A DNA stretch of 64,000 nucleotides from Candidatus Nanoarchaeia archaeon (GCA_028279755.1 JANQNB010000018.1:302191-366190); one strand, 5' to 3'; numbered from the stretch's first letter, positions 869 through 31,684 are shown. The notes: a model not told the origin generated them from the sequence alone. Made by a program: numbers and translations.

Positions 869-947
869 GCACCGCCGCGGCGCTCTTACTTCGTATGGTT
901 TGTGCTGCGGCCCTCTCGCTACGCATGCCGCGCCAAGGCGGCGGTGC
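869..947. repeat. AAG-bulge hairpin, copy 1 (REP-like dispersed element)
   Basis: GCACCGCCGC-GGCGC-TCTTAC...GCGCC-AAG-GCGGCGGTGC: 10-bp stem, 3-nt AAG bulge, 5-bp stem. Confidence 0.8.
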
Positions 948-1063
948 TATAGATTGGCAATGGAGGCTTCTCTGACGGATTGCCGCCAGAAGAGCTCGTC
1001 TATCTGGTTCACGTATGCTTCGTATTCCTGCCAGTCCATGTAATGCTTTTTCTTGAAGAGCAT
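947..1063 (-). CDS. 38-aa micro-protein MLFKKKHYMDWQEYEAYVNQIDELFWRQSVREASIANL
   Basis: SD-like GGGGGTGG, ATG 1 nt after the upstream stop, similar to the two upstream peptides. Confidence 0.6.
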   Translation of the reverse strand: MLFKKKHYMDWQEYEAYVNQIDELFWRQSVREASIANL

Positions 1064-1064
1064 C

Positions 1065-1181
1065 TTACCACCCCCTGAGGTAATGCTTCATCTCATCTTC
1101 GTCTGCGATGAGTCCCTGCCTGCTCAGCAGGCTGCTGACTTGTTCTGCGTATCTGTCCCTGTCCTGAAATGCTGCTGTCAT
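1065..1181 (-). CDS. 38-aa micro-protein MTAAFQDRDRYAEQVSSLLSRQGLIADEDEMKHYLRGW
   Basis: SD GGAGGT, ATG 1 nt after the upstream stop. Confidence 0.6.
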   Translation of the reverse strand: MTAAFQDRDRYAEQVSSLLSRQGLIADEDEMKHYLRGW

Positions 1182-1182
1182 G

Positions 1183-1266
1183 TTATACCTCCGCGCCAAG
1201 CGTGACGCGCTTCATCTGCTGGAAAAAGAGTTCTTCGATGAATGTCTGGTTCTCGTGGGCTTTCAT
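1183..1266 (-). CDS. 27-aa micro-protein MKAHENQTFIEELFFQQMKRVTLGAEV
   Basis: SD GAGGTGA 5 nt before ATG; TTAAATA TATA box at about 1311-1318 on the minus strand. Confidence 0.6.
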   Translation of the reverse strand: MKAHENQTFIEELFFQQMKRVTLGAEV

Positions 1267-1500
1267 GTGATTCACCTCTGTCGCTCTGACAGGCCTTGAT
1301 GTGGCAGAGTATTTAAGCGCCACGGGTGAATGTCCAGTGCTCTTCTCGACGATAGACACGGGCCAGTGGGTGTGCACGAAAAACTCGTTTTTTTCCACTT
1401 CAAGACTAGTTTTTTAAACAACAAAACTATACCTAAGACAGCAACGCAGCGACTTCTGTATACGCATGACGTGCAGAGCTTGCTGCCTGAGGTGACAAAA

Positions 1501-1740
1501 ATGGTAAAGAAACGAGGTCGCGGCCGTCCACGCGGTTTTGGCAGCGTCCCCCGCTCATACAAGGATCGATTCCAGAAGTTCTACTACGAGCACCGCGCTC
1601 GCCTGAACCAGGAACGGCGCAAACTGTACGAGGAACGCAAGGCGAAAGGGCTGTGCGTTCGCTGCGGCAAGATCGCGGTGAAGGGTAGTGTGTTCTGCCG
1701 CTCGCATCTTGACATGAGCCGCAAGTACAACAAGAACTAA
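1501..1740 (+). CDS. Small basic protein with an AT-hook-like RGRGRPR motif and a C-terminal CxxC...CxxH zinc finger
   Basis: SD GAGGTGA before ATG 1501; KKRGRGRPRG...CVRCGK...FCRSH. Confidence 0.75.
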   Translation: MVKKRGRGRPRGFGSVPRSYKDRFQKFYYEHRARLNQERRKLYEERKAKGLCVRCGKIAVKGSVFCRSHLDMSRKYNKN

Positions 1741-1778
1741 AACATATCTATTCTCAAATATATTATTTATTATATCTA

Positions 1779-2834
1779 TCAGAAATCCGTGATTTTCTTG
1801 TTCACGATGGTGGTATTGCCGCCTTCGCCTTTCTTGCGTTCGAGCGTGACAAACTTGCCTTCGTCGAGCGCTGCGAGCTTCCGCTGGAAGGTCTTATAGC
1901 TCACTTTGCCGCCTTCCTTCTTGTAGAGATTGTAGAGTTCGCCGATCTTCTTGCCGTCGTGCTGCTTGATCACGTCGTAGATGAAGCGTTCTTCTTCAGT
2001 GAGATCCTCGCTGCTCTTGATCGTGAACTCGTCCATGTTGCCCAACGCGGCGTTGACATGCTCAGCAGTGACTTTCTGGCTTGCTGCATCCTCTGCTTTC
2101 AACGTGGCCTGCCGCATCACGTACAAGCCGGTGCGGATGTCCTTTGCGCCTGCCGCTTTCTCGACGACAAGGTCGAAGGCTTTCGGCTCCCAGACGCCAG
2201 TGATGAACGCGTATTCTGAACGCTGTTCGAGAATGCCGCGTGTTTCCTTGTCGTTGTACTGCTTGAACTCGATCAGCTCTGGCGTGAGCCGTGATTTTAT
2301 GCGTTCGTCGAGCTCGATGAGCCAGCTCTTGTAGTTGGTGATGACAATGATGCTCTTCTTGAACAGTTCTTCGAGCAAGGAGTAGAGGAAATCGAACTCT
2401 TCTGCTTTGTCGATCTCGTCGAAGACAATGACTGCGCTTTTCTTGTTCACCATCGACGCGATGACCTTGATCAATTCCTGGCTGTTCTTGTTCTGCGTGA
2501 ACTTGAAGCCGAGGAGCTCGCAGAGTTCTAACAAGACTTTGTAGGTGGTGTTGGCTTGCCAGCAGTTCACATAGCAGACTTCCACGTCATCAGTGCGTTC
2601 TTCGAGGTCGCGGAGGACGAATCTGGCTGCTGCGGTTTTGCCGATGCCGGGTGCGCCGTGGATGAGCGCGTTGCGGCCGTTGCGTCCTTCGAGCAAAGGC
2701 GCGATCAGTCTCGCGAGCTCCTTTTGTTCCCGTTCGCGATACGGCAAGAGCTTTGGCAGGAACTCGTATTCGAGCGCGTCCTCGTTCTTGAAGAGCGATT
2801 CGCCAGCATTGAGAACATCGTCGAAGAGGCCCAT
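1779..2834 (-). CDS. cdc6: Orc1/Cdc6 replication initiation protein
   Basis: N-terminal FKNEDALEYEFLPKLLPYRE, Walker A GAPGIGKT, YVNC, Walker B IVFDEID, DERIKSRL, C-terminal wHTH. Confidence 0.93.
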   Translation of the reverse strand: MGLFDDVLNAGESLFKNEDALEYEFLPKLLPYREREQKELARLIAPLLEGRNGRNALIHGAPGIGKTAAARFVLRDLEERTDDVEVCYVNCWQANTTYKVLLELCELLGFKFTQNKNSQELIKVIASMVNKKSAVIVFDEIDKAEEFDFLYSLLEELFKKSIIVITNYKSWLIELDERIKSRLTPELIEFKQYNDKETRGILEQRSEYAFITGVWEPKAFDLVVEKAAGAKDIRTGLYVMRQATLKAEDAASQKVTAEHVNAALGNMDEFTIKSSEDLTEEERFIYDVIKQHDGKKIGELYNLYKKEGGKVSYKTFQRKLAALDEGKFVTLERKKGEGGNTTIVNKKITDF

Positions 2835-2981
2835 GGGATGTGAGCGAGGGCCTGGTGGTATTTATGGCTAGTGGTGGAATGGTCATTATTTTTCCATATA
2901 GTCAAAATTACTATATTTTATAACTACTAATTGGTGGTTAAAATAGAAAATTATTTAAACTCGAATTATTCATACGTGCCT

Positions 2982-3710
2982 ATGCAAATCCGTGATTTGG
3001 TGGCGCAATGTGCCTTGACGAAGAAAGAAGCGCATCTTCTTGAGGATCTCCTTCACCTTATTGAGCTGCATCCCAGTCTTGAAGAAGGAATGATTGATGG
3101 TGGTGTTGGCACGAAAATATACATTGATCCTCGCTATCGACACCTCAACACTCGTTCCTGGGATATTGACATGGTTTTCCCCGAACTTCCGGCAGATTTA
3201 CTGCCTCACTTACGGCCGATCACGGTAATCGAACGTGAAAGAATCGTCTATAAAATGTACGAAGTTGATATCACTTGCGTACCGGGAAAATTCACTGGAC
3301 ACAATCTTTATGTCCCAGGATACACGGACATTGACATAGCTGTCGGTGCGATTGCAGATATTGCCGTTCCTGAAGATGTGGATCCACTGATCATACCGCT
3401 TCAGCATGATGAGGGTCCTGAACGTCAGATTCGTTTTGTTCATCCTGGTGTTTTGATAGCTACTCAGCTCAAACCGCAAGGCTATAAATGGCAACGAGCC
3501 AACCGGGCACGTCTATTGTACCGATCCTTTGCCGAGGGAAGTCGGTTCGGATACACGCTCGGAGACGTTGAGGAGGTCTGCGCTTATGTTCTCAAGGAGA
3601 GCGGACTTGTCGGGACGTCGACCACAGATCATTTGCACAGACTGCGTGTAGATTTTGCGTCACGTGATGTTCCCTTCCGAAAGTTCGCTGAACGCGTTCT
3701 GAAAGGCTAG
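2982..3710 (+). CDS. Putative nucleotidyltransferase-fold protein (AbiEii/DUF2204-like)
   Basis: GG...R..DID motif (IDGGVG...TRSWDIDMV); own TATA box; atypical codon usage. Confidence 0.5.
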   Translation: MQIRDLVAQCALTKKEAHLLEDLLHLIELHPSLEEGMIDGGVGTKIYIDPRYRHLNTRSWDIDMVFPELPADLLPHLRPITVIERERIVYKMYEVDITCVPGKFTGHNLYVPGYTDIDIAVGAIADIAVPEDVDPLIIPLQHDEGPERQIRFVHPGVLIATQLKPQGYKWQRANRARLLYRSFAEGSRFGYTLGDVEEVCAYVLKESGLVGTSTTDHLHRLRVDFASRDVPFRKFAERVLKG

Positions 3711-3730
3711 CTCTCACGTAGCTCTTGGTC

Positions 3731-5440
3731 TCACAGAAAGTCTTCGATGTTCGCAGCTTCTGAGAATTCTGCACGCAAGGATGCAAGACGGGCATCGTCA
3801 ATACCTTCGTACAACCGCTGCGGCTGTCCGATCTGATGATCGGTAGAAATTCCGACCTGGCTGGCCTCGTCCCACCGTCCAGGAGCGCCGACTTCTCCCT
3901 CGAAGTTGAGCTGCTCGCTCCACAACTCTTGCATGCTACGTGGCAGGAAAGGTGCTGCCACGATCGCAAGACTGCGTCCAAGATTCAGCGCGAGGTTGAG
4001 GGAGCGTCGTGCATCTTCGGTGCGGCCTTCCCGTACGGCTGTCCAGGGCGCGGTTCGCTCGAGATACACGTTCCCGACGCTGGCAAACTCCATGACTTGG
4101 CGGTAGGCCTCACGGAACTCTGCGCGTGACAAGCGCTCTCCGATCTGCACCGGGAAACTGGCGATGTCTTCCATGAGAAAGCGGTCACTATCTGTGAGGT
4201 CGCTGAGTTCGCCCCCGACGCGGCCGTCGAACTTCTTCCGGATCTGGCTTAAGGTCCTGTTGAAAAAATTCCCAAGCTTGCCGATGAGCTCGCTGTTGAC
4301 ATGCGCCTGCATCTGGCTCCATTTGAAGTCAGTGTCCCGTGCTTCAGGAATCGTCGTCGTCAGATAGGCACGCAACACGTCTGGATGAAGATCACTCGTG
4401 AGTATGTGATGGGCGAACACGCCGATGTTCTTGCTCTTCGAGAACTTCTGCCCTTCGAATGTCAAGTAGTTCAACCCGACGATGTTGGTCGGCAGCTGGA
4501 TGTCCCTGTGGGCCATGAGCATGCCTGGCCAGAAGATCGTGTGGAACGGGATGTTGTCTTTTCCGAGGACGTGGATTCGTTCAGCATCTGAATTGAGCCA
4601 GTATTTTGCGAAGGCGTCACTGCCGAGCTCGTGTGTGAAACTCAGGTAGCCGATCGGCGCTTCGAACCAGACATAGAAGACCTGGTCTTGCACGCCGTCA
4701 TGATTGACCGGGATTCCCCAGGAGAGATCTCGCGTGATAGAGCGAGAGCGGAGGCCGTCTGCCAGCCACCGACTCGCTTCCCCGGAAACGTGGGGACGCC
4801 ACACATCTCGCTGACTCTTGATCCATCTGCCCAGATCACCGCGTACTCTGGGAAGGTCGAAGTAGAGCTGCGGCATCGCCCTCACGGTCAGTGCTTCTCC
4901 AGTGTTTGTACTGCGCGGGTTGACGAGCTCACCTGGCTCGAGCGGCCTGCGACAGCCGTCACACTGATCACTATAGGCTTCTTCATACCCGCAATCTGCT
5001 TGTGGACAAGTGCCTGTTACATAGCGGTCAGTGAGGAAATGTCCTTGTTCTGGAGAGAAATACATTGCTTCAACAGCCTGATGGATGAAGCCTTCTCTGT
5101 CAAGCGCGTCAAAGAACTGTCCTGTCATTCGATGGTGTTCGGGGCTTGAGGTTCGTGAGTAGTTTGTGTAACCGATTCCCATGGCTTCGTAGATTCTGCG
5201 GTGGGCGTCGTGGAGACGTTCGGTCAGTTCCGCTGTCGGGATGCCGAGTCGCTCGGCTGCCATCATTGCGGGCGCGCCGTGCTCGTCTGAACCACCGACG
5301 AGAACACTGTCCCGGCCCTGTGCTGTGTAGAACCTGTGCAGTATGTCGGCTGGCAGGTGCGAACCGACGATATTGCCGCAGTGCGGAAGATTATTGATGT
5401 ACGGCAACGCCGCAGTAATCAGTACTGGTGGTTTGCTCAT
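3731..5440 (-). CDS. metG: Methionyl-tRNA synthetase
   Basis: ITAALPYINNLPHCGN (HIGH-type), GSDEHG, zinc-knuckle Cys, YVWFEA, GKDNIPFH, KFSKS. Confidence 0.95.
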   Translation of the reverse strand: MSKPPVLITAALPYINNLPHCGNIVGSHLPADILHRFYTAQGRDSVLVGGSDEHGAPAMMAAERLGIPTAELTERLHDAHRRIYEAMGIGYTNYSRTSSPEHHRMTGQFFDALDREGFIHQAVEAMYFSPEQGHFLTDRYVTGTCPQADCGYEEAYSDQCDGCRRPLEPGELVNPRSTNTGEALTVRAMPQLYFDLPRVRGDLGRWIKSQRDVWRPHVSGEASRWLADGLRSRSITRDLSWGIPVNHDGVQDQVFYVWFEAPIGYLSFTHELGSDAFAKYWLNSDAERIHVLGKDNIPFHTIFWPGMLMAHRDIQLPTNIVGLNYLTFEGQKFSKSKNIGVFAHHILTSDLHPDVLRAYLTTTIPEARDTDFKWSQMQAHVNSELIGKLGNFFNRTLSQIRKKFDGRVGGELSDLTDSDRFLMEDIASFPVQIGERLSRAEFREAYRQVMEFASVGNVYLERTAPWTAVREGRTEDARRSLNLALNLGRSLAIVAAPFLPRSMQELWSEQLNFEGEVGAPGRWDEASQVGISTDHQIGQPQRLYEGIDDARLASLRAEFSEAANIEDFL

Positions 5441-5544
5441 ATCTACACAGAGACTTTCATCATTTATAAATCTTTTGTTACTACATAGTGAATACATCCA
5501 ACGCGGCCAAAACTTTATATTTCTGGCGTCTCCCTGTGCCTTCC

Positions 5545-7308
5545 ATGCATTACTCTTCCCTCGTGGACGTCTACGAAGCGCTCGAAGCCACTTCTAAGAG
5601 GCTTGAGAAGACGCACGTCTTGGCCGAGTTTCTGAAGCAAGTGCCTGAGCCTGAGCTTGAGCGCGTGATCCTCTTGCTCCAAGGCAGGCCGTTTCCGCCC
5701 TGGGATAGGCGAACGTTGGGTTTCTCGTCGAAGTTGGCAGTGAAGGCGGTTGCTGTCGCCTCAGGCGAGAGTGAGAAAAAGGTCACAGAAAGCTGGAAGC
5801 ACGAGGGCGACTTGGGCAAGGTGGCAGTGACGCTCGTGGGCAAGAAAAAGCAAGCGACGCTGGTCTCGCAGGACCTGACTGTGAAGGAAGTCTTTGACAC
5901 CCTGCAGAAGCTGCCTGCGATGGAAGGCCTGGGGTCGACTGACCGCAAGGTGAAGACCATCGCCGCTTTGCTAGGCCACGCAACCGGCAATGCTGCGCTC
6001 TACCTGCTCAGGACAGTGCTCGAGACCTTGCGCGTGGGTGTTGCTGAAGGCACCTTGCGCGACGCGATCACGTGGGCCTATCTGCAGCCTCAAATAAACT
6101 ACAATATGGAAAAGAATGATATCGAGTTCCATGAAGACAGCGACAGGGAAGCCTACAACAAGCTCACTCAGGCGGTGCAGAAAGCCTATGATCGCTGCAA
6201 TGACTTCAGCCATGTGGCAGCAACAGCCAAGCAAGGCGGCACAGCGGCATTATCTAAGATCTCCTTGGAATTAGGCACGCCCATCAGGGTCATGCTCAGC
6301 CAGCGAGAGCCCACGGTAGAAGCAGGAATGCAGCGTGTGGGCACGCCAGCAGCCCTGGAATTCAAATACGACGGCTTTCGCATGCAGGTGCACAAGGACA
6401 AGGACACGGTGACTATCTACACACGGCGCTTGGAGAACGTCACCACGCAGTTCCCGGACGTAGTGGATGCAGTGAAGGCTCACGTGAACGCCAAAACCGC
6501 CTTGCTGGACTGCGAAGCAGTGGGCTATGACAAGAAAACCGGGAAATACACGCCCTTCCAGCACATCAGCCAGCGGATCCGGCGCAAATACGACATCGAC
6601 AAGCTCAAGGAGCAACTCCCGATCGAGCTCAACGTGTTCGACATCCTCTATCTCGACGGCAAGGAATTGCTCGACTTGTCTTTCCACGAGCGGCGAAAAC
6701 TGCTGGAAAAAACGGTGAAAAACGTTCCGAAAGCTATAGTTTACAGTTCATATATCGCTACCGATAGTATTCCTGACGGCGAACGATTCAACGCCAAAAG
6801 TCTTGGTGCAGGCAACGAAGGCATCATGTGCAAAGCCCTCGATGGCGTCTACAAGCCAGGGAGCCGTGTCGCCACGTGGGTCAAGGTCAAGCCTGTTTTA
6901 GATACGATGGATCTTGTCGTGGTAGCTGCTGAGTGGGGTGAGGGCAAGCGCTCTGGCTGGCTCACAAGCTTCACTGTCGCATGCAAAGGCGATGAAGGCG
7001 ACTATGTCACGATCGGCAAGGTCGGCACTGGCTTGAAAGAGCTTGAACAAGACGAGGGTGTGACGTTCAACCAAGTCACAGAGCTGCTCAAGCCCCATAT
7101 TGTTCAGGAGAAAGGCCGGGACGTTGTTGTGAAGCCTGATCTCGTGTTCGAGCTCGCGTTTGAAGAGATCCAGCAGAGCCCGAGTTATGAAAGTGGCTAC
7201 GCACTGCGATTCCCAAGAGTTCTCCGCGTCAGAGACGACCGTGACCCAGAAGAGATCACAACCCTGGAAGAAGTCCGGGTAGCGTTCGAGCACCAGCGCG
7301 GCAGATGA
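5545..7308 (+). CDS. lig: ATP-dependent DNA ligase
   Basis: EFKYDGFRMQVH (KxDG), EGIMCK, WVKVK, GKVGTG, LRFPR. Confidence 0.97.
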   Translation: MHYSSLVDVYEALEATSKRLEKTHVLAEFLKQVPEPELERVILLLQGRPFPPWDRRTLGFSSKLAVKAVAVASGESEKKVTESWKHEGDLGKVAVTLVGKKKQATLVSQDLTVKEVFDTLQKLPAMEGLGSTDRKVKTIAALLGHATGNAALYLLRTVLETLRVGVAEGTLRDAITWAYLQPQINYNMEKNDIEFHEDSDREAYNKLTQAVQKAYDRCNDFSHVAATAKQGGTAALSKISLELGTPIRVMLSQREPTVEAGMQRVGTPAALEFKYDGFRMQVHKDKDTVTIYTRRLENVTTQFPDVVDAVKAHVNAKTALLDCEAVGYDKKTGKYTPFQHISQRIRRKYDIDKLKEQLPIELNVFDILYLDGKELLDLSFHERRKLLEKTVKNVPKAIVYSSYIATDSIPDGERFNAKSLGAGNEGIMCKALDGVYKPGSRVATWVKVKPVLDTMDLVVVAAEWGEGKRSGWLTSFTVACKGDEGDYVTIGKVGTGLKELEQDEGVTFNQVTELLKPHIVQEKGRDVVVKPDLVFELAFEEIQQSPSYESGYALRFPRVLRVRDDRDPEEITTLEEVRVAFEHQRGR

Positions 7309-7350
7309 TTCCCATAAGCTATTTAAGATGACGCTCACTCTTCGGCAGTG

Positions 7351-8145
7351 ATGACGCGGCGAAAGCGACGTAAGGACTGGGAGCCGACTGTGCCCCTTGC
7401 CTCGGGTGGGCCGACGCGTGTCATGCAAACGCGTACACGAACACGGCGACTTGAACATCTGACGCAACTTCAGCGAGAGCACCTCCTGTTCCTGGCACGA
7501 CAACACGGTGTCGAGCGTGACGTGGCCGAGTTTGAGCCGCCATTCTGCGATGAGGTCCGCTCAATTGTTGCAGAAGCAAACAGACCGGGGATTCAGGCAG
7601 TACATGGGACCTCGCACGCATTCCTGTACCATCGCCATTTCTATCATCTGCTGGCAAGCCCGTGCGGGCCGGTCACGACGATCAGTGCGAGCGCACCTGT
7701 TGTCCTTGTCGGCAGAATTGGCCCGTATGCTGGCGCTGTCTTTCAAGTGAAAGGACCGGATTTCCAGAAAGCAGCACAACGCTTTGCAGGCCACTGTAAT
7801 GTACTCTGCTCGATCCTGGATCGCCAACTCGACCGTGGCGATTATTATCACGAGTCAGATCTCCTTGCCATTGAATTGAAGCCGAGTCCGCAATTGTTCA
7901 ATGAAGTCTGCTACTGGTTCTCGCACAACGCTCCGCAGGTATTCAGACCAGCAGCGCATATGTTTCCCAGGAGAGGAGAAGAGAATGGAAATCGTGTCTA
8001 TTGCAACTCCGATCTTAAGCGGTTTGTGGAGCGGCCTACTGCCATCACTCTTGACCAGAAGGCACTTGCTGGCCCGCAGCGTGGTCCGCGACTGGTGGAT
8101 GCAGCTGCGCCTGATACCTATTACGTGCTGCCCTTCCAGCGATGA
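7351..8145 (+). CDS. Hypothetical protein
   Basis: About 265-aa ORF filling the gap, with a TTTAAG TATA upstream; no recognisable motif. Confidence 0.55.
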   Translation: MTRRKRRKDWEPTVPLASGGPTRVMQTRTRTRRLEHLTQLQREHLLFLARQHGVERDVAEFEPPFCDEVRSIVAEANRPGIQAVHGTSHAFLYHRHFYHLLASPCGPVTTISASAPVVLVGRIGPYAGAVFQVKGPDFQKAAQRFAGHCNVLCSILDRQLDRGDYYHESDLLAIELKPSPQLFNEVCYWFSHNAPQVFRPAAHMFPRRGEENGNRVYCNSDLKRFVERPTAITLDQKALAGPQRGPRLVDAAAPDTYYVLPFQR

Positions 8146-8242: not shown

Positions 8243-8246
8243 GAGA

Positions 8247-15542: not shown

Positions 15543-15591
15543 GCGCTGCTGCGGCGCTCTTACTGCGTATGCCGCGCCAAGGCAGCAGCGC
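15543..15591. repeat. AAG-bulge hairpin, copy 2
   Basis: GCGCTGCTGC-GGCGC-TCTTAC...GCGCC-AAG-GCAGCAGCGC. Confidence 0.8.
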
Positions 15592-16137: not shown

Positions 16138-16237
16138 GCTCCAACGCCGCCTTGGTGGCCTCTCCAGTGCACTGACAGATTCACCGAATCAGATACAGCG
16201 CGATAGCCACGTCGAATGGCCACCGCTGCGTTGGAGC
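16138..16237. repeat. AAG-bulge hairpin, copy 4 (reads on the minus strand)
   Basis: Minus strand: GCTCCAACGCAGC-GGTGGCC...GGCCACC-AAG-GCGGCGTTGGAGC. Confidence 0.7.
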
Positions 16238-23900: not shown

Positions 23901-26900
23901 GACGATGCCAACGACCAGGTCGGCAGATGGGTCAGCCACCCGTTCTATGGCGTGTATCTCTTCCACGTCGACCTGGCGCTTTACGGCGATCCGGAAGCGT
24001 GCGCTGACATCGACCTGCCGCCAGAGATCTACAACGAGTTGCAGGACGTGCTGGACGAACCTGATCAAGACATCCTCTGGTGGGCTGTGGAGATGATCGC
24101 CGGCAACAATCCGGGAATGACCTACGGCGAGATGTGCGACTATGCAGAGCACTTCCTCGACGAGTTCTTCCACGACGAGTACGATGGCACAGTCGATGAG
24201 TTCATTGACGAACTCCCGCTCGAGTACGCGGAAGACATCCATACGATACTCCGTTGCCTGGGCTACGACGACGAGCTCCATTTGAACACGCTGTGGAACA
24301 TGTGTCAGCAAGGCGACATCGACGCCCTGGAGCGGTTCACGCACGGCTTCAACTTCGTCGAGTCGAAGACCTTCGAGACCTTCATCCAGCAGAACGATTT
24401 CGTCCGCGGCATCACCTTCGGACTCAATCCGAAGTACGACGCCGACTACGAGGTCTACCTGACCATGGGTTGGAGCAACAACCCTGGCGGCTATGACATC
24501 AGCCAGCAGCTCACCAGTTGTGAGTGGATGCAGCGCGACCAGTGGAACAGCCGCATCAGGCCGGTGCATTATCCGCCGACCTGGCCAGGCGACACTGAAG
24601 GCGAGGGCCGCTATCGGGTCTGGCTGGAAGCCTTCCCATGCACAGGCGACCCGACAGTGCCATACTACATGTCGAACCGCTTCAACATCCGGCTGGACGA
24701 CCTGGCAAACCCCTGGCCGGTCTTCGGCCTGAGCACGGTCGCGGTGACGCCTGACGTGGACAACTTTGCAGAAGACGTCTACTGGACCAACGACCCGAAC
24801 GTCGAGATGAGCGCCATGCTCGGCGAGGACGTCGACTGGATGGAAGACCTGCGTTGCGAGATCTGGAACTATGTCGATGACGGCCAGTCTCAGTTCTACG
24901 AGCGCTGGGACTTCACTGGCGTCGACCAGACAGGCTGCGAAGGCGACATCGACCTCTCAGCGATTCCGGCAACGCACCACAGTGTGCCGATGTACGACAT
25001 CGAAGTGTGCGCCCACCCAATAGTTGGCCAGGTCGAGTGTGACTTGGTAACGTTCGGCTGGGACACCACGCCGCCGAGCATCAACTTCATCTTCCCGGCG
25101 GCAGTGGACATCCTCAGTGGCGTGGTGACGTTTGCCGTGGACGCGACTGATGACGGTGTGATGCGCTATGTCAACATCACCCTGGTGAACAAGACGAACG
25201 CGAACATGACCTGGCCGCTCGGGCTTGCCAATTACAGCAATGTCTCGGGCTACTGGGAGATCGTCGTGAACACCTCGCAGGTGCCGGACGGCTGGTACAA
25301 CATCAGCGTCGTCGCGGTTGACTATGCGGACAACGTCGCGTATGGCGTGCTCGACCCTGGTATCGACAACGAACCGCCAGTCGTCGAGAGTGTCATGATG
25401 AGCGGCTACTTCGGCGAGACCTTCCTCATCGAAGCCCTGATCAGCGACACGCCGACAACACCGCACCCTGATACTGGCGAACCGCTGGGCAGCGTGGTCG
25501 CAGCAGAAGCTGAAGTGTGGGGCTACCTGTGCGACAACGTGGTCGGCGAGGAATGCCACCTCGACTGGTGCGAGAGCTATGAAGATGATCCGTACTGGGA
25601 GTGCGGTGTCTTCGAGCACTGGGACCAGGACTGCCTGGACAGCGTCGCGCTCGATTGCGAGCAGAACTGGGAAACCTACCTGTACGACAGTTACGACGCG
25701 TGCTACGACGACCTGCGCTGGGCCTGCCAGTCAGACTACGGCAGCTGCGAGACCTTCTGCGACGGCTGGGGCGAATCGCTGGGCTTCACGACCTGGGAGG
25801 AATGCATCAACTGGTGCTACGACGAGCACTGCGAGTACATCGAGACTGGCTATTGGGACGAGTGCGAGACCTTCCTGACAGCAGACAGCGAGTGTGTCGA
25901 CCAGTGGGAGAGCTACTGCGACTCCAACTGGGAAGCTGACCAGTTCGCAAGCTACGGGGACTGTGTCGACTTCTACGAAGAGACGGAGTGCGCCTACGAA
26001 GACAGTGTCGAACTCTGCCTTGAGGAATACGACACGTTCTGCCTCGAGAACTGGTGGCATGAAGGCTATGACAGCTATGAACAATGCATCGACGACGCGT
26101 GCTACGAGGAATACTGCTCGTGGTTCTGGAACGACGACTGCTCCTACACAATGGAGTGCGACGTCTCCAGCGACCAGTATGACGACGAATGCCTGGATGA
26201 AGCAGCTGACTACTGCGGCGATGACCAATGGCTGATCGAAGAGTTCGAGAGCTACCTCGACTGCTATTACTTCTACGCAGACGACGAGTGCTTCAGCGAA
26301 GGCGAGGATGTGATCGACTGCATCGCCCGAGAGATCGCTGACTGCGAAGACGGCGGCTGGGAAGGCGAGTACGACAGCTACGAACACTGCATCGAAGAGG
26401 AGACCCTCGACTGCTACGCAGACTACTGCAGCTATAACGACGACGATGGCACCAACCCTGAACTTGTCTGCGACGGCAACTGCCTCGCTGACGCGTGCCC
26501 GGAGGAGGATCGCCTCTACGACCCGGTCGAGACAGAGATCGTCGCGCTCGAGCTCACGAGCGGCGACTCATTGCTCGGCACGTGGAGCGGCGAGCTTGAC
26601 AGCCCGGCAAAGGGTGTGCACTACCACATCGACGTCTACGCAGTGGACGCTGCCAACAACGAGAACACCATGGAGAACGTGGAGGAGAGCGCTGGCGAGT
26701 TCTTCAGCGACGCAGGCTACACCATCGAGGTGAACGCGCCTGCAAGCGTGAACCGCGGGGCGAACTTCAACATGGACGGCAGCGTCACCAGCACTGACGG
26801 CAGCACGCCTGCAGGCAACCTGAACCTGGCACCGTGGAACGTTGACCTGCCATTGTTCGGCAACCTCTTCGCATACACGCAGAGCCTGGGCGACAGCGGC

Positions 26901-27320
26901 GAGCAAGTGCTCACCGCGACCTTCACGCCTGACGCAGCATGCGAGGACCGCGTCTTCACCGGCAGCACGACTGTCGATGTTGCAGGACCGAACAGCGGCG
27001 GCGGAAGCGGCGGCGGTGGTAGCGGCGATGGTGTCGGTGGCAATACGGAAGAAGAACCGGAAGAGCAGCCGGAATCTGAGCCTGACGACAGCCAAGGCGG
27101 CAATACCGAAGAGACACAGGTCGGTACTGGCAGCGGCGGCAACACGCAGGAAGAAGATACTGGTGCGGGCACAGAAGCGCCTGAAGAACCGAGCGAGGAG
27201 AACCTCATCACTGGCGCGGCTACTGGCGGCGGATTCTTCAGCGGCCTCACCTGGCTCTGGATCGCCCTTGGCCTCCTGGCACTGCTCTTGCTGCTCTGGC
27301 TCGTGCTGCGCAAGCGCTAG
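20955..27320 (+). CDS. Giant mosaic cell-surface glycoprotein
   Basis: Signal peptide MKKRVLAVLL; coiled coils; QW-type repeats (QNGDGGW, QQANGGF, QNSDGVW); acidic Cys-rich repeats; Ig-like segments; C-terminal TM plus RKR. Confidence 0.9.
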   Translation: MKKRVLAVLLIVLSLVMATNALASSIDFPSAVFVDQDFKLQQNSGSVDCDMPSGGGNYCLVAWTSPDGSDDGSFNENPANPDPAAADRWQKYTVVGTYTVTITECVAGNCSVNASDTDTVEVLDPATIDGEISAGYYFETQTDWLQVRGYAQANAQSARAVWQGDDGTRITQCAAVNQGNNPEFTHTWGSVSSTWTHQSYMLFINYFQGPGCVGLDSYPHYWVGDFDLLQIRAILNDLDALSAALNSTNATLQAQIDDLYSQVGNMSANLTAIEAQVDDLWDLVNLMNHGTINLEFINNEVTVYGEAPVGAAIADVEFYDSDGTLVHSFTVGVDVDSTYTLTEDTSAWDEIRYTVRVTFYDSSSVVISQAMKLHGLILAADQLVDTQNGDGGWPWTIPPGGSSPANIIGEVAVGLVGAYEKTGDAAYLAAIDDAYLFINNTNNSRSCSVYSFLVKASEATGDAKYATLAQNRWDARKAGYGDADAWAAAIVTGRTNQGYAATGLLGYDLDLCTYDALVLDSYFPGSGYDSDADSFAEAAYQWAYVNESFNVSDDTATWYILGINGLYDMFQRTGLHASEAASLRALLLSYQQANGGFPESSVYSDDYQGTAYVIRTLMEDGASDAVDAARDAADWLLSEQNSDGVWDYSGTEYPSINGMILYGVSLATEAETVSTVFEALFTNYINRTLHEEIAEVWDALGAHNHATILIDEYLTELWVYGEAPIGALSARIGFWDINDDSLDYNVSVNVSSWGINDNEYETLVQKADLDSVRYAVAAQFYNASLNASGLPPSGSYMQGYYVSLSWDGMYLAWLEDWLDTHEAWLINNTQWLNDLNTTVGNHSARLDQIEAEILAIQAELVLIQANITDLHATDLWLQTQIDDLVSRVDVLEAEVIALWEAIELLNHGDLDLVWDEGDDRLRAKIKFPLGATKARLMAYDADDELYDTYGIVFPEADNYKNVDWYGLLSWDPQVYTIKVKFMDDANDQVGRWVSHPFYGVYLFHVDLALYGDPEACADIDLPPEIYNELQDVLDEPDQDILWWAVEMIAGNNPGMTYGEMCDYAEHFLDEFFHDEYDGTVDEFIDELPLEYAEDIHTILRCLGYDDELHLNTLWNMCQQGDIDALERFTHGFNFVESKTFETFIQQNDFVRGITFGLNPKYDADYEVYLTMGWSNNPGGYDISQQLTSCEWMQRDQWNSRIRPVHYPPTWPGDTEGEGRYRVWLEAFPCTGDPTVPYYMSNRFNIRLDDLANPWPVFGLSTVAVTPDVDNFAEDVYWTNDPNVEMSAMLGEDVDWMEDLRCEIWNYVDDGQSQFYERWDFTGVDQTGCEGDIDLSAIPATHHSVPMYDIEVCAHPIVGQVECDLVTFGWDTTPPSINFIFPAAVDILSGVVTFAVDATDDGVMRYVNITLVNKTNANMTWPLGLANYSNVSGYWEIVVNTSQVPDGWYNISVVAVDYADNVAYGVLDPGIDNEPPVVESVMMSGYFGETFLIEALISDTPTTPHPDTGEPLGSVVAAEAEVWGYLCDNVVGEECHLDWCESYEDDPYWECGVFEHWDQDCLDSVALDCEQNWETYLYDSYDACYDDLRWACQSDYGSCETFCDGWGESLGFTTWEECINWCYDEHCEYIETGYWDECETFLTADSECVDQWESYCDSNWEADQFASYGDCVDFYEETECAYEDSVELCLEEYDTFCLENWWHEGYDSYEQCIDDACYEEYCSWFWNDDCSYTMECDVSSDQYDDECLDEAADYCGDDQWLIEEFESYLDCYYFYADDECFSEGEDVIDCIAREIADCEDGGWEGEYDSYEHCIEEETLDCYADYCSYNDDDGTNPELVCDGNCLADACPEEDRLYDPVETEIVALELTSGDSLLGTWSGELDSPAKGVHYHIDVYAVDAANNENTMENVEESAGEFFSDAGYTIEVNAPASVNRGANFNMDGSVTSTDGSTPAGNLNLAPWNVDLPLFGNLFAYTQSLGDSGEQVLTATFTPDAACEDRVFTGSTTVDVAGPNSGGGSGGGGSGDGVGGNTEEEPEEQPESEPDDSQGGNTEETQVGTGSGGNTQEEDTGAGTEAPEEPSEENLITGAATGGGFFSGLTWLWIALGLLALLLLLWLVLRKR

Positions 27321-28511: not shown

Positions 28512-30204
28512 CTTACTTGTCGACATCGGCATCATCATCGTCGTGGCCACGATCGGCGGCTATCTTGCCAAGCTGTCGAAGCAGCCATTGATCCCTGCCT
28601 ACATCCTCATGGGTGTGCTCCTCGGTCCAGTACTCGGCCTGATCCGCGACCCCGAGAACATGCTCCTCCTGAGCGAGATAGGCATCGCATTCTTGCTGTT
28701 CATCGTCGGCCTCGAACTCGACCTGCGCAAATTGCGCGACGTCGGCGATGTCGCGACCTTCGGCGGCTTCCTGCAGGTAGCGATGATGTTCGGGCTCGGC
28801 TGGGGTGCGGCAAAACTCCTGGGTTTCTGCAACCTGACAGCGATCTATCTTGGCATCATCGTCTCGTTCAGCAGCACGATGGTCGTGATCAAGATGCTCA
28901 GCGACAAGTACGAGCTTGACACGCTGCACGGCAGAATCATCATCGGCGTGCTCCTGCTCCAGGACATCGTCGCCATCCTGGCATTGAGCATGCTCCACAC
29001 CGCAGACAGCGGCGCGGTCACGAGCATCCTCCTCAACCTGCTCATCGGCGGTGCGATCATCGTCGCCAGCTTCCTCCTCGGCAAGTTCCTCTTCCCGCCC
29101 CTGTTCCGGCACGCAGCGAAAAGCCTGGAGCTGCTCTTCCTGCTCGCAGTGAGTGTGTGCTTCTTCTTCGCATTGTTATTCACGCTCTTCGGCTTCTCCA
29201 TCGCAGTCGGCGCCTTCATCGCCGGCGTCATCCTGGCGAACCTGCCGTACAACATCGAGATCATCAGCCGCGTGAAACCATTGCGCGACTTCTTCACCGT
29301 GCTCTTCTTCGCCAGCATCGGCCTCCAGCTCACCTTCACTGACATCGCTTCGACGATACCGGCGTTCATTGTCCTTCTCGTCCTCACCGTCCTTGTCAGT
29401 CCGCTCCTCACAATCGTGGTGTGCAGCCTGTTCGGCTATAAGCGCCGCACGTCATTCCTGACAGGGATGACCCTGAGTCAGATCAGCGAGTTCGCCCTCA
29501 TCGTCGCGCTCGCAGGACTCACCTTGGGCCACATCTCGCAGGGCATCTTCAGCCTCATTCTGGAGGTGACCATCATTTCGATCATCGTCAGCGCCTATCT
29601 CATCAAGTTCGAGGACAAGATCTACAGCAAGCTCGGCAAGTACTTCCTCGTGTTCGAACGCTTCAGCAAAGTCAATAAGGAACTCGAGAACATGAGCGAC
29701 GAGAGCACGCACGACGTGGTCCAGATCGGCTACGACCGCACCGGCTACAGCATCTTCCGCACTTTGAGAAAGATGCGGAAGGACTTTGTTCTCGTCGACT
29801 TCGATCCTGACGTGATCCGCCACCTGCTCGAACGGAACATCCCCTGCATCTACGGGGACATCGGCGACCCGGACGTGCTGGACAAGCTCAAGCTGCAGCA
29901 GGTCAAGCTCGTCGTCAGCACGATCCCGAACTTCCACGAGAATCTCATGCTGCTCAAGACGATGAAGAAGAAGCACAGCCACGCGCAGGTCATCGTCACA
30001 AGCTACCAGGCGGAAGACGCGCTCGCGCTCTATGAAGAAGGCGCTGATTACGTCATCGTCCCCCACTTCCTCGGCGGCGAGCATGTCAGCTACATGCTCG
30101 AGGACATCAGCACCAACCTCGACAAACTCATCACGGCAAAGCTCCAGCACATCAAGGAACTCAAAACCAGGGAAGAGCTGCGTCCGAAGAAGCGCAAGAA
30201 GTGA
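28504..30204 (+). CDS. Kef-type cation:proton antiporter (CPA2) with a TrkA-N domain
   Basis: LSEIGIAFLLFIVGLE, FSSTMVV, LLLQD, SQISEF, GYDRTG, YGD. Confidence 0.93.
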   Translation: MDSLLVDIGIIIVVATIGGYLAKLSKQPLIPAYILMGVLLGPVLGLIRDPENMLLLSEIGIAFLLFIVGLELDLRKLRDVGDVATFGGFLQVAMMFGLGWGAAKLLGFCNLTAIYLGIIVSFSSTMVVIKMLSDKYELDTLHGRIIIGVLLLQDIVAILALSMLHTADSGAVTSILLNLLIGGAIIVASFLLGKFLFPPLFRHAAKSLELLFLLAVSVCFFFALLFTLFGFSIAVGAFIAGVILANLPYNIEIISRVKPLRDFFTVLFFASIGLQLTFTDIASTIPAFIVLLVLTVLVSPLLTIVVCSLFGYKRRTSFLTGMTLSQISEFALIVALAGLTLGHISQGIFSLILEVTIISIIVSAYLIKFEDKIYSKLGKYFLVFERFSKVNKELENMSDESTHDVVQIGYDRTGYSIFRTLRKMRKDFVLVDFDPDVIRHLLERNIPCIYGDIGDPDVLDKLKLQQVKLVVSTIPNFHENLMLLKTMKKKHSHAQVIVTSYQAEDALALYEEGADYVIVPHFLGGEHVSYMLEDISTNLDKLITAKLQHIKELKTREELRPKKRKK

Positions 30205-31143
30205 TCAGTGTCCGTTCAAGAGAAGATCTTCTGTCACGTCATCGTCAGCGTCTATCGCTAATCCTGCGAGGTCGGTGAACAGCCAACGTACATGTTCGCC
30301 GCGAGCCTGCGCTTCATTCCTCAAGAACACCTTCTCAAAGGCTCTTTCTGTGAATGGCACGTCAATCTTCTTCGTCAGGATGAAGGCGGCATACGCAAGC
30401 ACACCTCTTGTCGCGAGGTTCGGCACAAAGCTTGCTTGTTCATCTGCACTGAAAAACTCACCCATGAGGCTAGCGAACTGACGAACGCGATCGAAACGCC
30501 GCTTCTCGTCAAGTCTATACATGTCAGCCTCGAGGAAACTTGTTGTTGCGTCTCCACGGAATGCGTAGATCAGGTTCGCGAAGGCAGCGGCAGCGTTCAG
30601 ACGGATGCTGTGCGGTCGAGTGAAGATGATATGTCCGTTCGAGTACTTGCTTTCTGTGCCGTCAGGCATCTTGAATGTGTACGATCGCTTCTTGAAACGA
30701 GGATCAATAACGTCGCGATTGACAGTCGTGAATGTCATTGCAGCAGTTTCCAGCTGCTCATACGCCTCGAGCACTGCCTTCAGCTCTTCCACGCTCGGAT
30801 TGATATCGCACAGCATGATCGCTGCGCTCTTTCCAGGGGCCAAGCCGCTCGCGATCACCTGCTCCAGCCCTGCGACCATATTCCTGCCAAGCGGAGAATA
30901 TTGCGGTGTAACGACGTGATAGGCATCCTCAAAATCAAGGACCAAGTTGTTCAGTGCGGCCTCACCTACGACATATACCGGACCAAAGCCTGCTGCTTGC
31001 GCCTTTGGTATGAGATGCGGGAGGAAATCCCTGCCTTTGAGTTCATGACCAATGTGATGCGCTCCTGGCAGCAAGTCGCGTTCCCTGTCGCGGTAGTTTG
31101 CATCCTTGTCCCTGCCTGCTGAGAAGATTATTGGTATACTCAT
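30205..31143 (-). CDS. Putative MobA-like NTP-transferase-fold protein
   Basis: IIFSAG, MLCDI, C-terminal IDADD; atypical codon usage. Confidence 0.55.
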   Translation of the reverse strand: MSIPIIFSAGRDKDANYRDRERDLLPGAHHIGHELKGRDFLPHLIPKAQAAGFGPVYVVGEAALNNLVLDFEDAYHVVTPQYSPLGRNMVAGLEQVIASGLAPGKSAAIMLCDINPSVEELKAVLEAYEQLETAAMTFTTVNRDVIDPRFKKRSYTFKMPDGTESKYSNGHIIFTRPHSIRLNAAAAFANLIYAFRGDATTSFLEADMYRLDEKRRFDRVRQFASLMGEFFSADEQASFVPNLATRGVLAYAAFILTKKIDVPFTERAFEKVFLRNEAQARGEHVRWLFTDLAGLAIDADDDVTEDLLLNGH

Positions 31144-31262
31144 ATCTGACGAGAAACGCGATGTGATTTATAAGCATTCTCAGTAATTGACTACTGTGCA
31201 ATGGTGTTTAGTGATGATTTCTCCACAGCTTTATAAAGGCCTGGGCTTCTCTGCAGTCCATC

Positions 31263-31535
31263 ATGCAATCCCGTTCCACACGCACAAGACGGCTTAGGCT
31301 GGAAGCCAAGGCCCTGCAACCAGTGCTCAGCATCGGCAAGAATGGCATTACACAAGGCATTATCGCACAGCTCGCCGACGAGCTCGAGCGCAAGCAACTC
31401 GTGAAGATCAGGTTCCTGCGCAGCTTTCTCGAGGGCAGGGATAAGAAAGAAGCTGCTGCAGAGCTCGCCAGCTTCACGAAAAGCCAGGTTGTAGAGCTTG
31501 TCGGCCATGTCCTCGTGCTCTATCGAGCAGGCTGA
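31263..31535 (+). CDS. yhbY: YhbY/CRM RNA-binding protein
   Basis: LQPVLSIGKNGIT, LVKIRF, VGHVLVLYR. Confidence 0.9.
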   Translation: MQSRSTRTRRLRLEAKALQPVLSIGKNGITQGIIAQLADELERKQLVKIRFLRSFLEGRDKKEAAAELASFTKSQVVELVGHVLVLYRAG

Positions 31536-31571
31536 GTGGTACTGTGGCAGTATCGCTGCGGCTATTTGTTC

Positions 31572-31684
31572 TGCAGCACTGCGGCTTCTTACTCGCGCTT
31601 CGCGCGAGCACGTTCGAGCACGAGCGGAGCCTCATGACCTGCGGTCATCGCTCGTGCTCGGAGTTGTGCCAAGGCAGTGCTGCA
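31572..31684. repeat. AAG-bulge hairpin, copy 3, with branched internal hairpins
   Basis: TGCAGCACTGC-GGC-TTCTTAC...GCC-AAG-GCAGTGCTGCA; internal stems CTCGCGC/GCGCGAG and CGAGCACGAGCG/CGCTCGTGCTCG. Confidence 0.78.

Follow-up and report, generated by a model that had tools for sequence, protein, structure and literature searches.

What are the four bulged hairpins that lie between genes in this stretch of archaeal DNA, and what put them there? The stretch, hereafter the window, comprises 64,000 nucleotides of Candidatus Nanoarchaeia archaeon (GCA_028279755.1 JANQNB010000018.1:302191-366190). The original prediction, made from the sequence alone, described four dispersed elements of one architecture and took them for a REP/REPIN-like element or a protein-binding structure, with the acting enzyme encoded elsewhere. 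Followed up in the source genome (G000, 1.49 Mb, assembly 93.7% complete) and its relatives, that observation is confirmed and was understated, and its interpretation is partly supported. We consider it rather probable that the hairpins are members of a foldback-element family specific to this lineage, whose copies are small, non-coding, and non-autonomous and move at the DNA level, or did so until recently. We read this family as resembling REPINs and MITEs, with no known transposase that accounts for it.

Structure of the window copies

The window holds exactly four copies (Table 1), at the positions and with the architecture first described: 10-13-bp arms ending in GC, a GG...CC inner stem, and an AAG bulge, which in all four is 3 nt long and confined to the 3′ side. 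The arm sequences originally quoted are correct, including the single A-G mismatch of copy 3, which falls at the third arm pair counted from the junction and is common to the other C2 copies inspected. The motif TCTTAC, noted after the inner stem in three copies, is that of copies 1, 2, and 4. Structurally, the bulged hairpin is the minimum-energy structure of all four copies (RNAfold), its z-scores relative to dinucleotide shuffles lying between −2.5 and −5.7, and the complementary strands fold about equally well. Copy 4 scored 81.9 bits against the type D model, R1. The core of copy 1 contains the left half of a type B copy nested in it, with the arm GGTTTGTGCTGC at 897-908 followed by GGCCCTCTCGCTACGCATG at 909-927; the right half is missing in alignment against composite copies, and copy 1 therefore appears to derive from a nested composite by deletion. 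Against Rfam, only the four tRNAs of the window reached the gathering threshold, and in E-value scans over the elements all matches had E >1. A fifth match in the window, at 10577-10618, was rejected as chance because its bulge is GAG and it lies within a small ORF rich in Cys.

Table 1 Element copies in the window, with arms and inner strands named left and right as on the plus strand (left arm = 5′ arm for plus-strand copies)
Copy	Type	Size	Coordinates	Strand	Left arm	Left inner strand	Core	Right inner strand	Bulge	Right arm
1	A	79 nt	869..947	+	869-878	GGCGC 879-883	884-929	GCGCC 930-934	AAG 935-937	938-947
2	A-short, minimal form	49 nt	15543..15591	+	15543-15552	GGCGC 15553-15557	16-nt loop 15558-15573	GCGCC 15574-15578	AAG 15579-15581	15582-15591
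3	C2	100 nt	16138..16237	- (AAG strand = minus)	16138-16150	GGTGGCC 16154-16160		GGCCACC 16218-16224	CTT (bulge complement) 16151-16153	16225-16237
4	D, Y-shaped fold	113 nt	31572..31684	+	31572-31582	GGC 31583-31585	two internal hairpins	GCC 31668-31670	AAG 31671-31673	31674-31684

Three copies had been placed within 0-1 nt of a stop codon. This holds for copy 2, which is flush (0 nt) with the stop of ORF 15592-15876, and for copy 3, which a single nucleotide separates from that of ORF 16239-17168, both ORFs being on the minus strand; copy 1 has only a 1-nt overlap with the stop of a 38-aa minus-strand ORF (947-1063) that is weak evidence of a gene. Copy 4 begins 36 nt past the stop of a CRS1/YhbY gene. 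The AAG-bearing strand is antisense to the abutting gene in copies 1-2 and sense in copies 3-4, as had been claimed.

A genome-wide family with an invariant junction

The architecture of the four hairpins recurs far beyond chance expectation, as a dispersed family would: a junction-based scan of G000 gave 64 matches against 4 in the reversed-sequence control genome, and 58 copies were left after curation. Arms are 9-16 bp long in every copy, and elements measure 48-190 nt. The bulge reads AAG in 56 of the 58 copies, and the junction C/GG(C) ... (G)CC-AAG/G (slash, arm boundary) is invariant across the family. Fifty distinct 10-nt arms occur among the 58 copies, and 564 of 580 arm pairs are Watson-Crick (0.972), whereas 1000 shuffles averaged 0.528 and never exceeded 0.588; the pairs include 4 G-T and 2 A-C. 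Before GG, the six inner arm pairs follow the purine/pyrimidine pattern YRYYRC and vary almost exclusively by transitions, while the outer pairs are free. Inside the junction lies an inner helix whose length depends on the type: types A and B have 5 bp, type D has 3 bp and sometimes 4, and type C2 has 7 bp. A loop or multiloop comes next. The structured cores are exchangeable (types A, B, C1, C2, D, and E), and among close copies they are far better conserved than the outer arms, with identical 26-nt cores flanked by arms that differ at 2-6 of 10 positions. This could reflect a sequence-level function of the core in every copy.

Position relative to genes

Copies survive where the compact genome tolerates them: directly behind stop codons, between convergent stops that touch, or in the space that separates a stop from the following TATA box. 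At 24 of 52 outermost copies, an ORF with 80 or more codons ends within 8 nt of an arm, as opposed to 3-8 of 52 when the boundary is shifted by 40-150 nt; several copies occupy precisely the gap separating convergent stops, and the neighbours are ordinary housekeeping genes. Both the excess at stops and the exactly filled gaps favour an explanation that we nevertheless hold to be unlikely, namely that these are host-functional RNA hairpins, such as 3′-end structures, terminators, or insulators at near-spacerless genes, spread or kept because of their use and with a junction and cores that bind an RNA-binding protein. The same explanation gains from the conservation of cores over arms, from the transitions at the six inner pairs, which are expected where change passes through wobble intermediates, and from the folding of both strands, which would allow a plain hairpin function in either orientation.

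Other aspects of position tell against it. No T-tract was seen by eye after copies in the listed flanks, and a place between divergent gene starts was found for 6 of 45 copies (on crude gene calls) as well as for the copy common to G004:C77 and G006:C213. Of the copies no more than 5 nt from the stop of a called gene, 12 are sense and 9 antisense (by eye, on crude gene calls, with three convergent-gap copies counted for both sides), which agrees with the initial argument against a plain strand-consistent terminator.

Turnover, nesting, and orientation

Copies come and go at orthologous sites, and they insert into one another. At four orthologous sites one species has a copy and another does not, which is the insertion polymorphism looked for at the outset: in G003 a type D copy of 106 nt separates two genes that stand ~15 nt apart in G000, and three sites filled in G000 are empty in G003 and G002 (the first), in G003 (the second), and in G002 (the third). 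No palindrome was found at the empty sites of these four, and in two of them the stop codons of convergent genes overlap or abut. In no case do both of the compared genomes, which represent different species of a single genus, carry a copy, and this occupancy of 0/4 argues against hairpins retained for a host function. No target-site duplication was evident at the three G000-filled sites or, by eye, in the flanks of 45 copies; since the compared species are only 70-78% identical at filled sites, short duplications could be hidden. Nesting takes the form of B inside A-long, A inside D, and one triple nest, and two further records have an insertion at another internal position.

An orthologous copy can also occur in either orientation. 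Downstream of the same gene, G004:C49 and G006:C40 match at 104 of 120 positions only after one is reverse-complemented, and at 80 of 120 otherwise. This copy could have been inverted in place between two close genomes, the alternative being that related copies inserted there twice, independently of each other. Subfamilies, nesting, the YRYYRC arm pattern, and the orientation flip all come in addition to what was first described.

Distribution and covariation of type D

Type D, the subfamily of window copy 4, was found in 14 of 18 further genomes from this family (15/19 with G000 counted) and in 0 of 42 genomes from other families of the order. Within this one family, matches to the model range from 0 to at least 60 per genome, the highest counts within the genus being those of G004 (at least 60) and G006 (at least 56). 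Covariation was assessed in 84 copies from 7 genomes, with 28 pairs and 2249 paired cells: 97.2% of cells are paired, compared with 74.2% in shuffles and 34-52% with partners slid, and 27 of the 28 pairs changed on both sides. Together with the arms of G000, these pairs uphold the compensatory change that the original prediction had proposed. The outcomes it named as contrary (no further copies and no significant covariation, or copies that are all strand-consistent transcript 3′ ends with no insertion polymorphism) are not what we found.

The kinds of non-Watson-Crick pairs help to separate DNA from RNA. Among the 2249 paired cells there are 65 G-T/T-G and 21 A-C/C-A pairs. At a single pair, 37 of the 84 copies have T-G, which favours RNA hairpins and, as it would be a C-A mismatch on the opposite strand, hints at one preferred folding strand; with that pair set aside, the counts are 28 and 21. 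G-U thus amounts to about 1% of pairs and, without the single T-G pair, is no commoner than A-C, a scarcity that is unusual for RNA under structural selection. We prefer a DNA-level over an RNA-level process because G-T is about as rare as A-C (one pair aside), gene orientation is mixed, and an orthologous copy is inverted. RNA hairpins would, moreover, leave the invariant one-sided AAG bulge, the subfamilies, and the nesting unexplained.

Proposed mobility and the acting enzyme

If the elements are mobile foldback DNA, as we prefer, the AAG-bulge junction and the R/Y-patterned helix would putatively be where a DNA-binding nuclease or recombinase, acting in trans, recognises the element, which would fold either as single-stranded DNA or by cruciform extrusion. 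The almost perfect Watson-Crick pairing of all stems may be kept by DNA-level palindrome dynamics as much as by selection, presumably through intra-strand template switching or arm-to-arm conversion, which could also invert the core. Any host benefit, for instance as an insulator between abutting genes, would be secondary. In a more specific form, which we advance tentatively and regard as rather doubtful, this would be a mobile prokaryotic foldback element for which no dedicated transposase of the known classes is needed. Structure would define its ends, at the base of the extruded hairpin, and C/GGC...GCC-AAG/G on a YRYYRC helix would be read by a host or novel nuclease or recombinase. The element would have exchangeable structured cores, flip in place, and owe the perfect pairing of its stems to template switching in DNA. 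Were this true, stem 'covariation' would be a mutational signature and not proof of RNA function.

Searches of G000 for Y1_Tnp, RVT_1, IS110, TnpB-domain, and Phage_integrase proteins revealed no transposase or recombinase linked to the elements. RVT_1 and IS110 gave no match, and TnpB-domain matches were sub-threshold only. G000 contains no dispersed repeats of at least 200 bp in at least three copies that might be an autonomous partner, and a long-range junction scan for an autonomous element with the same ends yielded chance-level pairs only.

The enzyme originally envisaged was a Y1 HUH transposase (RAYT or IS200/IS605 TnpA) that binds the bulged single-stranded hairpin and whose gene lies elsewhere or is unassembled. 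'REP/REPIN-like' is a fair description of family behaviour: as in bacterial REP/REPIN-RAYT systems, these are short intergenic hairpins in tens of copies, non-autonomous, with paired changes, often at gene 3′ ends or in convergent gaps. Unlike those, they reside in an archaeal host without a RAYT or Y1 HUH gene in G000, lack the conserved terminal 5′ tetranucleotide (as the diversity of arms implies), and combine variable outer stems with an invariant inner AAG-bulge junction and with cores that are exchanged and nested. The enzyme itself we now judge quite improbable. Pfam Y1_Tnp had no match in G000 despite its 58 copies, some with identical cores, although a 93.7%-complete assembly could be missing the gene. 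Across the family, Y1_Tnp exceeded the cut-off in only 3/19 genomes, a distribution that does not track that of the elements; G012, whose Y1 match is the best, lacks any match to the type D model. The two genomes of the genus richest in type D, G004 and G006, are indeed the two with Y1_Tnp above cut-off, and their matches lie near contig ends, which suggests repeated copies. These genes, however, look IS200-type and have an end hairpin of their own, different and without the AAG junction; one has an in-frame TAG stop, the other matches the profile only from position 46, and our scan gave no clear element copies beside them, whereas RAYT genes are typically flanked by REPs. Along the largest contig, too, no strand bias of copies is visible (replication origins not placed).

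Less probable still is that the elements are substrates of the archaeal tRNA-splicing endonuclease, with arm, 3-nt bulge, and short G-C helix forming a bulge-helix-loop, cores excised from transcripts and perhaps circularised, and the family being intron-like. G000 encodes EndA, many of its tRNA genes have introns, and the order of parts is that of its tRNA-Met precursor, where a 3-nt bulge on the 3′ strand adjoins the outer helix and precedes a 4-bp helix. In the elements, by contrast, the helix is not fixed at 4 bp (3-7 bp by type), a second 3-nt bulge is absent, and the bulge has one specific sequence, AAG, an invariance not expected of a structure-reading enzyme. Moreover, copies occur on either strand, with about two fifths of those abutting stops antisense to the neighbouring gene; empty DNA sites lack the hairpin that a spliced product would leave; G000 has no reverse transcriptase match that could fix RNA events in DNA; G-U pairs are scarce; and the 16S processing stem of G000 has no junction similar to that of the elements.

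Integron attC sites are defined by their fold and extrahelical bases, have a variable apical structure, and often start at the stop codon of the preceding gene, and folded single-stranded sites of this kind for a tyrosine recombinase would fit a structure conserved over varying stems, a one-sided bulge, a variable apical part, copies that start directly after stops, and four Phage_integrase-domain matches in G000, but we deem them the least likely of all, since copies are single and scattered among housekeeping genes with no cassette arrays, none adjoins a recombinase gene or lies near the four Phage_integrase loci, and conservation sits at the inner junction with no outer R box or R′/R″ consensus.

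Relation to other hairpin elements

IS200/IS605-derived PATEs have hairpin-dependent mobility and include non-autonomous copies in archaea, in which the present elements resemble them. PATEs, however, have a pair of unlike subterminal hairpins and rely on TnpA or TnpB; in the present elements one hairpin embraces the whole, G000 has neither a TnpA gene nor more than sub-threshold TnpB matches, and the end hairpin of the IS200-like genes of G004 and G006 is without the AAG junction. Parvovirus-type flip/flop terminal hairpins are Y- or T-shaped, GC-rich, and ~110-125 nt long, with a long stem, an asymmetric interior, and two orientations. The likeness in these features is by analogy only; the copies here are chromosomal and interspersed, not at a genome terminus, and no Rep gene is known for them. 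MITEs differ in that the terminal inverted repeats here vary between copies (50 of 58 arms distinct), perhaps in the target-site duplication, which was not seen at the three filled sites between species 70-78% identical, and in the parent insertion sequence, of which none was found in G000. They are alike in being small, non-coding, multi-copy, and nested, with terminal inverted repeats and presence or absence at orthologous sites, and in a published census a Woesearchaea genome, with 105 MITE-like sequences per Mb, is reported to be one of the archaeal genomes where these are most abundant (PMC11602168).

A dispersed family of bulged foldback hairpins

On balance, we lean towards reading the elements as a DNA-level, non-autonomous foldback family that is specific to one Woesearchaeota family and is defined by its bulged junction (the boundary of outer arm, inner stem and bulge) rather than by its termini. 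All four window copies were verified at their predicted positions and with the predicted architecture: read directly from the sequence, each has a 10–13-bp outer arm ending in GC, an inner stem with GG at its start and CC at its end, a 3-nt AAG bulge confined to the 3′ side, and a complementary arm beginning with GC. Structurally, the bulged hairpin is the minimum-energy structure for all four (z-scores −2.5 to −5.7 against dinucleotide shuffles), and their complementary strands fold about as well. Genome-wide, a junction scan (requiring both junction motifs, nine or more paired positions out of ten in the arms, and 3 bp or more of inner stem) of the source genome, G000 (1,488,492 bp in 24 contigs, 93.7% complete, 54.6% G+C; the window is C23:302191-366190), returned 64 matches, as against 4 in the reversed, uncomplemented genome. 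Six of the 64 were discarded as chance, among them a would-be fifth window copy, counted as chance for its GAG bulge and its place inside a small Cys-rich ORF. This leaves 58 curated copies, exactly four of them in the window, and the type D covariance model described below matched 23 sites in G000, some missed by the junction scan, so that the true total is somewhat above 58. The dispersed family that had been proposed is thus confirmed, and is broader than first reported. No further dispersed repeats of at least 200 bp in at least three copies were found in G000; these roughly sixty structured elements are the sole dispersed repeats found there, occupying the few positions that such a genome can spare.

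The junction is the constant part of the family. Among the 58 copies the bulge is AAG in 56, TAG in one and AGG in one, and the junction-adjacent arm base is C in all 58. Outward from this C, the arm reads R (G 46, A 12), Y (C 29, T 22; also A 6, G 1), Y (C 50, T 7; also G 1), R (G 36, A 22) and Y (C 34, T 24); these five inner positions vary nearly always by transitions, and positions farther out vary freely. The same arm pattern, YRYYRC, is also kept in other type D genomes (pairs 6–11). Ten-nucleotide arms take 50 distinct forms among the 58 copies.

The cores fall into several types. Type A-short has a 26-nt core, giving 49-nt elements, and type B is related to A, covariation having turned the inner stem GGCGC/GCGCC into GGCCC/GGGCC; an extra helix and hairpin mark A-long and B-long, and type E is a type A with two inserted hairpins. 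Types C1 and C2 form a further group, with an A–G mismatch at the third arm pair from the junction common to the C2 copies read, and type D is Y-shaped. Types A and D have end motifs in common, GGCNNCTTAC on the left and ATGCC-AAG on the right. Aligned with composite copies, copy 1 looks like a composite that lacks its right half.

Window copies, discarded matches and neighbouring features (window coordinates where marked; otherwise genome and contig or locus)
Feature	Location	Strand	Description
Copy 1	window 869-947	+	type A
Copy 2	window 15543-15591	+	type A-short, 49 nt
Copy 3	window 16138-16237	-	type C2
Copy 4	window 31572-31684	+	type D
Discarded window match	window 10577-10618		GAG bulge
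Other discarded matches	G000 C4:95577, C6:45760, C7:84929, C7:254860, C24:55843		
Small Cys-rich ORF	window 10474-10632		MSYCCGGGCQEY..., behind a TATA-like box; source of one false hairpin match
Long ORF	window 20919-27320		2133 aa, by far the largest gene of the window's first half
tRNA cluster	window 57079-57909	-	four genes (Glu, Ile, Gly, Val)
tRNA-Leu-adjacent repeats	G000 C23:152223-152286 (L072 224-287)		outside the window
AT-rich perfect palindrome and variants	G000 C4:80488, C14:90527, C22:25619, C23:14041, C13:33168		ATTTTCTATATAGAAAAT, intergenic
Second repeat family	G004 L168 ~3091-3259; G006 C55, C266, C255		~165 nt, inverted conserved ends of ~30 bp (GGCTCTTAGGCAAATG...)
Stem at the position equivalent to copy 3	G001 L027		11 bp, CTGGCGCGGCA / TGCCGCGCCAG around ~75 AT-rich nt
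Y1 genes or relics	G004:C103, G004:C48 end, G006:C77, G012:C6		

Covariation and the level of constraint

The compensatory change that the original prediction had noticed in the outer stems proved to be strong. Arms in G000 are Watson–Crick paired at 564 of 580 positions, as against a mean of 0.528 and a maximum of 0.588 when 3′ arms were shuffled among copies (1000 trials). For type D, a covariance model was built from 13 copies; in an alignment of 84 copies from seven genomes, standard pairs make up 97.2% of 2332 cells (column shuffles, 74.2%; slid partners, 34–52%), and 27 of the 28 pairs change on both sides, in 577 cells, an alignment that, being fitted to the model, favours the structure, with a margin that is large all the same.

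Such covariation would suit a hairpin that serves the host as an RNA, a reading we consider unlikely, given how little wobble accompanies it. Structural RNAs usually tolerate many more G–U pairs. Among 2249 paired cells of the 84 type D copies (outermost pair excluded) there were 65 G–T/T–G and 21 A–C/C–A, and 37 of the G–T fall at one single pair, without which the counts are 28 and 21, each about 1%; the G000 arms hold four G–T and two A–C among their 580 pairs. This rough symmetry is as expected from a constraint acting on both DNA strands or from templated correction. Strong covariation with almost no wobble thus cautions against taking covariation alone as evidence of a functional RNA. 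Rfam gave no match at the elements at gathering thresholds, and permissive scans returned only E > 1.

The mixed strand orientation that had been predicted also held, with counts of 12 sense and 9 antisense where the stop of a called gene lies no more than 5 nt from a copy (counted by eye on crude gene calls, three copies between convergent genes being counted on both sides). Most tellingly, between the related genomes G004 and G006, one copy (G004:C49 and G006:C40) lies downstream of the same gene with both flanks orthologous and with arms differing by one compensated transition, and the two versions are identical at 104 of 120 positions when one is reverse-complemented, as against 80 of 120 in the same orientation. 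From these alignments we read the difference as an apparent inversion in place, the alternative being two independent insertions; at a second orthologous copy (G004:C77 and G006:C213) the orientation is kept.

Turnover, nesting and position relative to genes

The genomes of DPANN archaea are very small and densely packed with genes, and their mobile DNA is poorly known. Comparison of orthologous intergenic regions, as proposed for detecting insertion polymorphism, found filled and empty states at four sites. In the related genome G003, a 106-nt type D copy starts inside the stop codon of a PIN-domain gene orthologue, the same gene pair being about 15 nt apart in G000. Conversely, G000 has a type D copy between the stop of a Toprim-domain gene and the TATA box of a RIO-kinase gene, which in G003 and G002 lie a few nucleotides apart with no element. 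A 128-nt composite separates convergent genes in G000 whose stops overlap in G003 (CTAG), and a 55-nt A-short copy lies between convergent stops that touch in G002. None of the empty orthologous sites contained a palindrome or the arm sequence; elements therefore bring their arms with them. Two ways in which they might pre-exist were rejected: that they are inverted copies of the target flank, since the arm sequences are not in three empty sites, and that empty palindromes serve as targets, since no core-less palindrome of the element arm type was noticed by eye among the 191 perfect inverted repeats in G000 with arms of 9 bp or longer and a spacer no longer than 30. No target-site duplication was seen at the filled and empty sites, in species just 70–78% identical, a divergence that could hide short ones.

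Elements also lie inside one another: in at least five G000 copies B takes up the hairpin slot of A-long, in two copies the apical hairpin of D contains A, one locus has three nesting levels, and a nested copy at another internal position occurs in a metagenome contig and a G006 record. Further comparison of G004 with G006 found one locus to be a rearranged cluster of elements, another to lie at contig ends in G006, and the locus around a 73-aa gene not to be syntenic; flanks were unrelated in two of four similar-copy pairs. Three sequencing runs contain the sequence, all of them DNA contigs from a single study and one perhaps its source; no RNA run is among them. Aligned to window 500–17500, these contigs in some cases end inside copy 1, with joints from repeats, and none skipped an element, which is uninformative on polymorphism.

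Identical 26-nt cores occur with arms that differ at 2–6 of 10 positions, and four composite copies have interiors 94–99% identical and identical inner arms, with outer arms that differ at 2–4 of 10 positions, every difference being compensated in the partner arm. Similar copies at unrelated G004/G006 loci show four compensated arm transitions against about 9% change inside the element; in another such pair, 12 of 13 arm positions are alike. Change is therefore quicker in the outermost arms than elsewhere in the element, and always in step. It might come from conversion between the two arms, from homogenisation among copies that affects their interiors without reaching the edges, or from the copying process itself.

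Of 52 outermost copies, 24 have the end of an ORF (80 codons or more) within 8 nt of the 10-bp arm boundary, compared with 14 of 52 for boundaries shifted by 20 nt and 3–8 of 52 for shifts of 40–150 nt. On crude gene calls, 39 of 45 copies have a gene 3′ end on one side or both, and the other 6 are flanked by gene starts on both sides. At empty sites, intergenic spacers are close to zero, so selection against other insertion points can explain the contact with stops; targeting of stop codons is the other possibility. In the window, TATA-like motifs were read on the far side of each copy, as predicted. Of three copies said to abut a stop within 0–1 nt, copy 2 touches one and copy 3 lies at 1 nt, but copy 1 qualifies only through a 38-aa ORF whose stop codon it overlaps; copy 4 lies 36 nt downstream of the stop of a CRS1/YhbY gene. 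Elements of this kind mark gene boundaries and break MAG assemblies, and knowing them would aid annotation and assembly of these lineages. In G001, the stem at the position equivalent to copy 3, downstream of the orthologue of window gene 16239–17168, lacks the AAG bulge and could represent a different type of hairpin.

Distribution and the search for an enzyme

Type D matches were found in 15 of 61 genomes searched, namely G000 and 14 of 18 other genomes of the same family; 42 further families of the order, each represented by one genome, gave none. Copy number varies widely between related genomes, with type D matches ranging from 0 to at least 60 per genome; 63 candidates were scored in each, so that high counts are lower bounds. 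The exact type A/B core pattern occurs in two of 41 related genomes (G000 and G006) and elsewhere in one genome_contigs record and three metagenome contigs of one sample; no viral contig carries it. A full-text literature search found no published description of such elements. In a census of MITE-like sequences, a Woesearchaea genome is among the densest archaea, at 105 per Mb (PMC11602168); the passages that report this leave the anatomy undescribed, and the census supplements may list members of the family.

The REP/REPIN-like character originally suggested stands as regards behaviour and fails as regards the proposed HUH enzyme: Y1_Tnp, the Pfam domain of that class, had no match in the 93.7% complete G000. 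We consider mobility driven by such an enzyme improbable. Within the family, Y1_Tnp was above cut-off in G012, G006 and G004, and the last two are the genomes of their genus richest in type D, which is suggestive. However, their Y1 genes look, from their sequences, like IS200-type relics, one having an in-frame TAG and one a profile match that begins only at position 46, and each has a different end hairpin of its own; moreover, type D has no match in G012, and G000 combines many copies with the lack of any such gene. The hairpin that ends the Y1 genes read in G004 and G006 is GC-rich; in G004 it is CCCCGGCC-TTTA-GGCCGGGG. Both genomes also hold several copies of the second repeat family, beside type D copies.

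Other candidate enzymes fared no better in G000: RVT_1 and the IS110 DEDD domain had no match, and the TnpB zinc-ribbon domain only sub-threshold matches. An autonomous copy was sought as junctions with matching arms at most 6 kb apart; the eight pairs are about the chance estimate, and the best, which encloses an EamA transporter gene, was rejected as chance. Small contigs were rejected as hidden insertion sequences, only C5 and C8 being alike; these two 1124-bp contigs, 93% identical over their full length, are likely strain variants kept separate by the assembler. The conserved bulged junction, free outer stems and swappable cores point to a structure-reading protein outside the usual transposases.

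tRNA-related and other observations

That the hairpins are substrates of the splicing endonuclease, of which G000 has one, is very unlikely. Several tRNA introns begin TATCCTC, as do some type D cores, and have a small hairpin and then AAG or AG at their end; we hold this likeness to be coincidence, because the intron AAG of tRNA-Lys(CUU) pairs with the anticodon. The 16S processing stem has no junction resembling that of the elements. An attC-like site is still harder to credit, the four tyrosine-recombinase-domain loci of G000 all lying away from element copies.

ARAGORN called 49 tRNA genes in the whole of G000, many with introns, some at non-canonical positions and some probably false, and several of the introns are related to one another. 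Directly after tRNA-Leu, the last ~10 nt of the gene are repeated twice, first inverted and then direct, so that two alternative hairpins with the tRNA 3′ end as arm can form. Their loops are similar to the reverse complement of the type A loop and to the 3′ segment of A-long; the site may be an old integration site or a decayed element with the tRNA end as arm. The AT-rich palindrome of G000, ATTTTCTATATAGAAAAT, may be a shared bidirectional promoter or a binding site.
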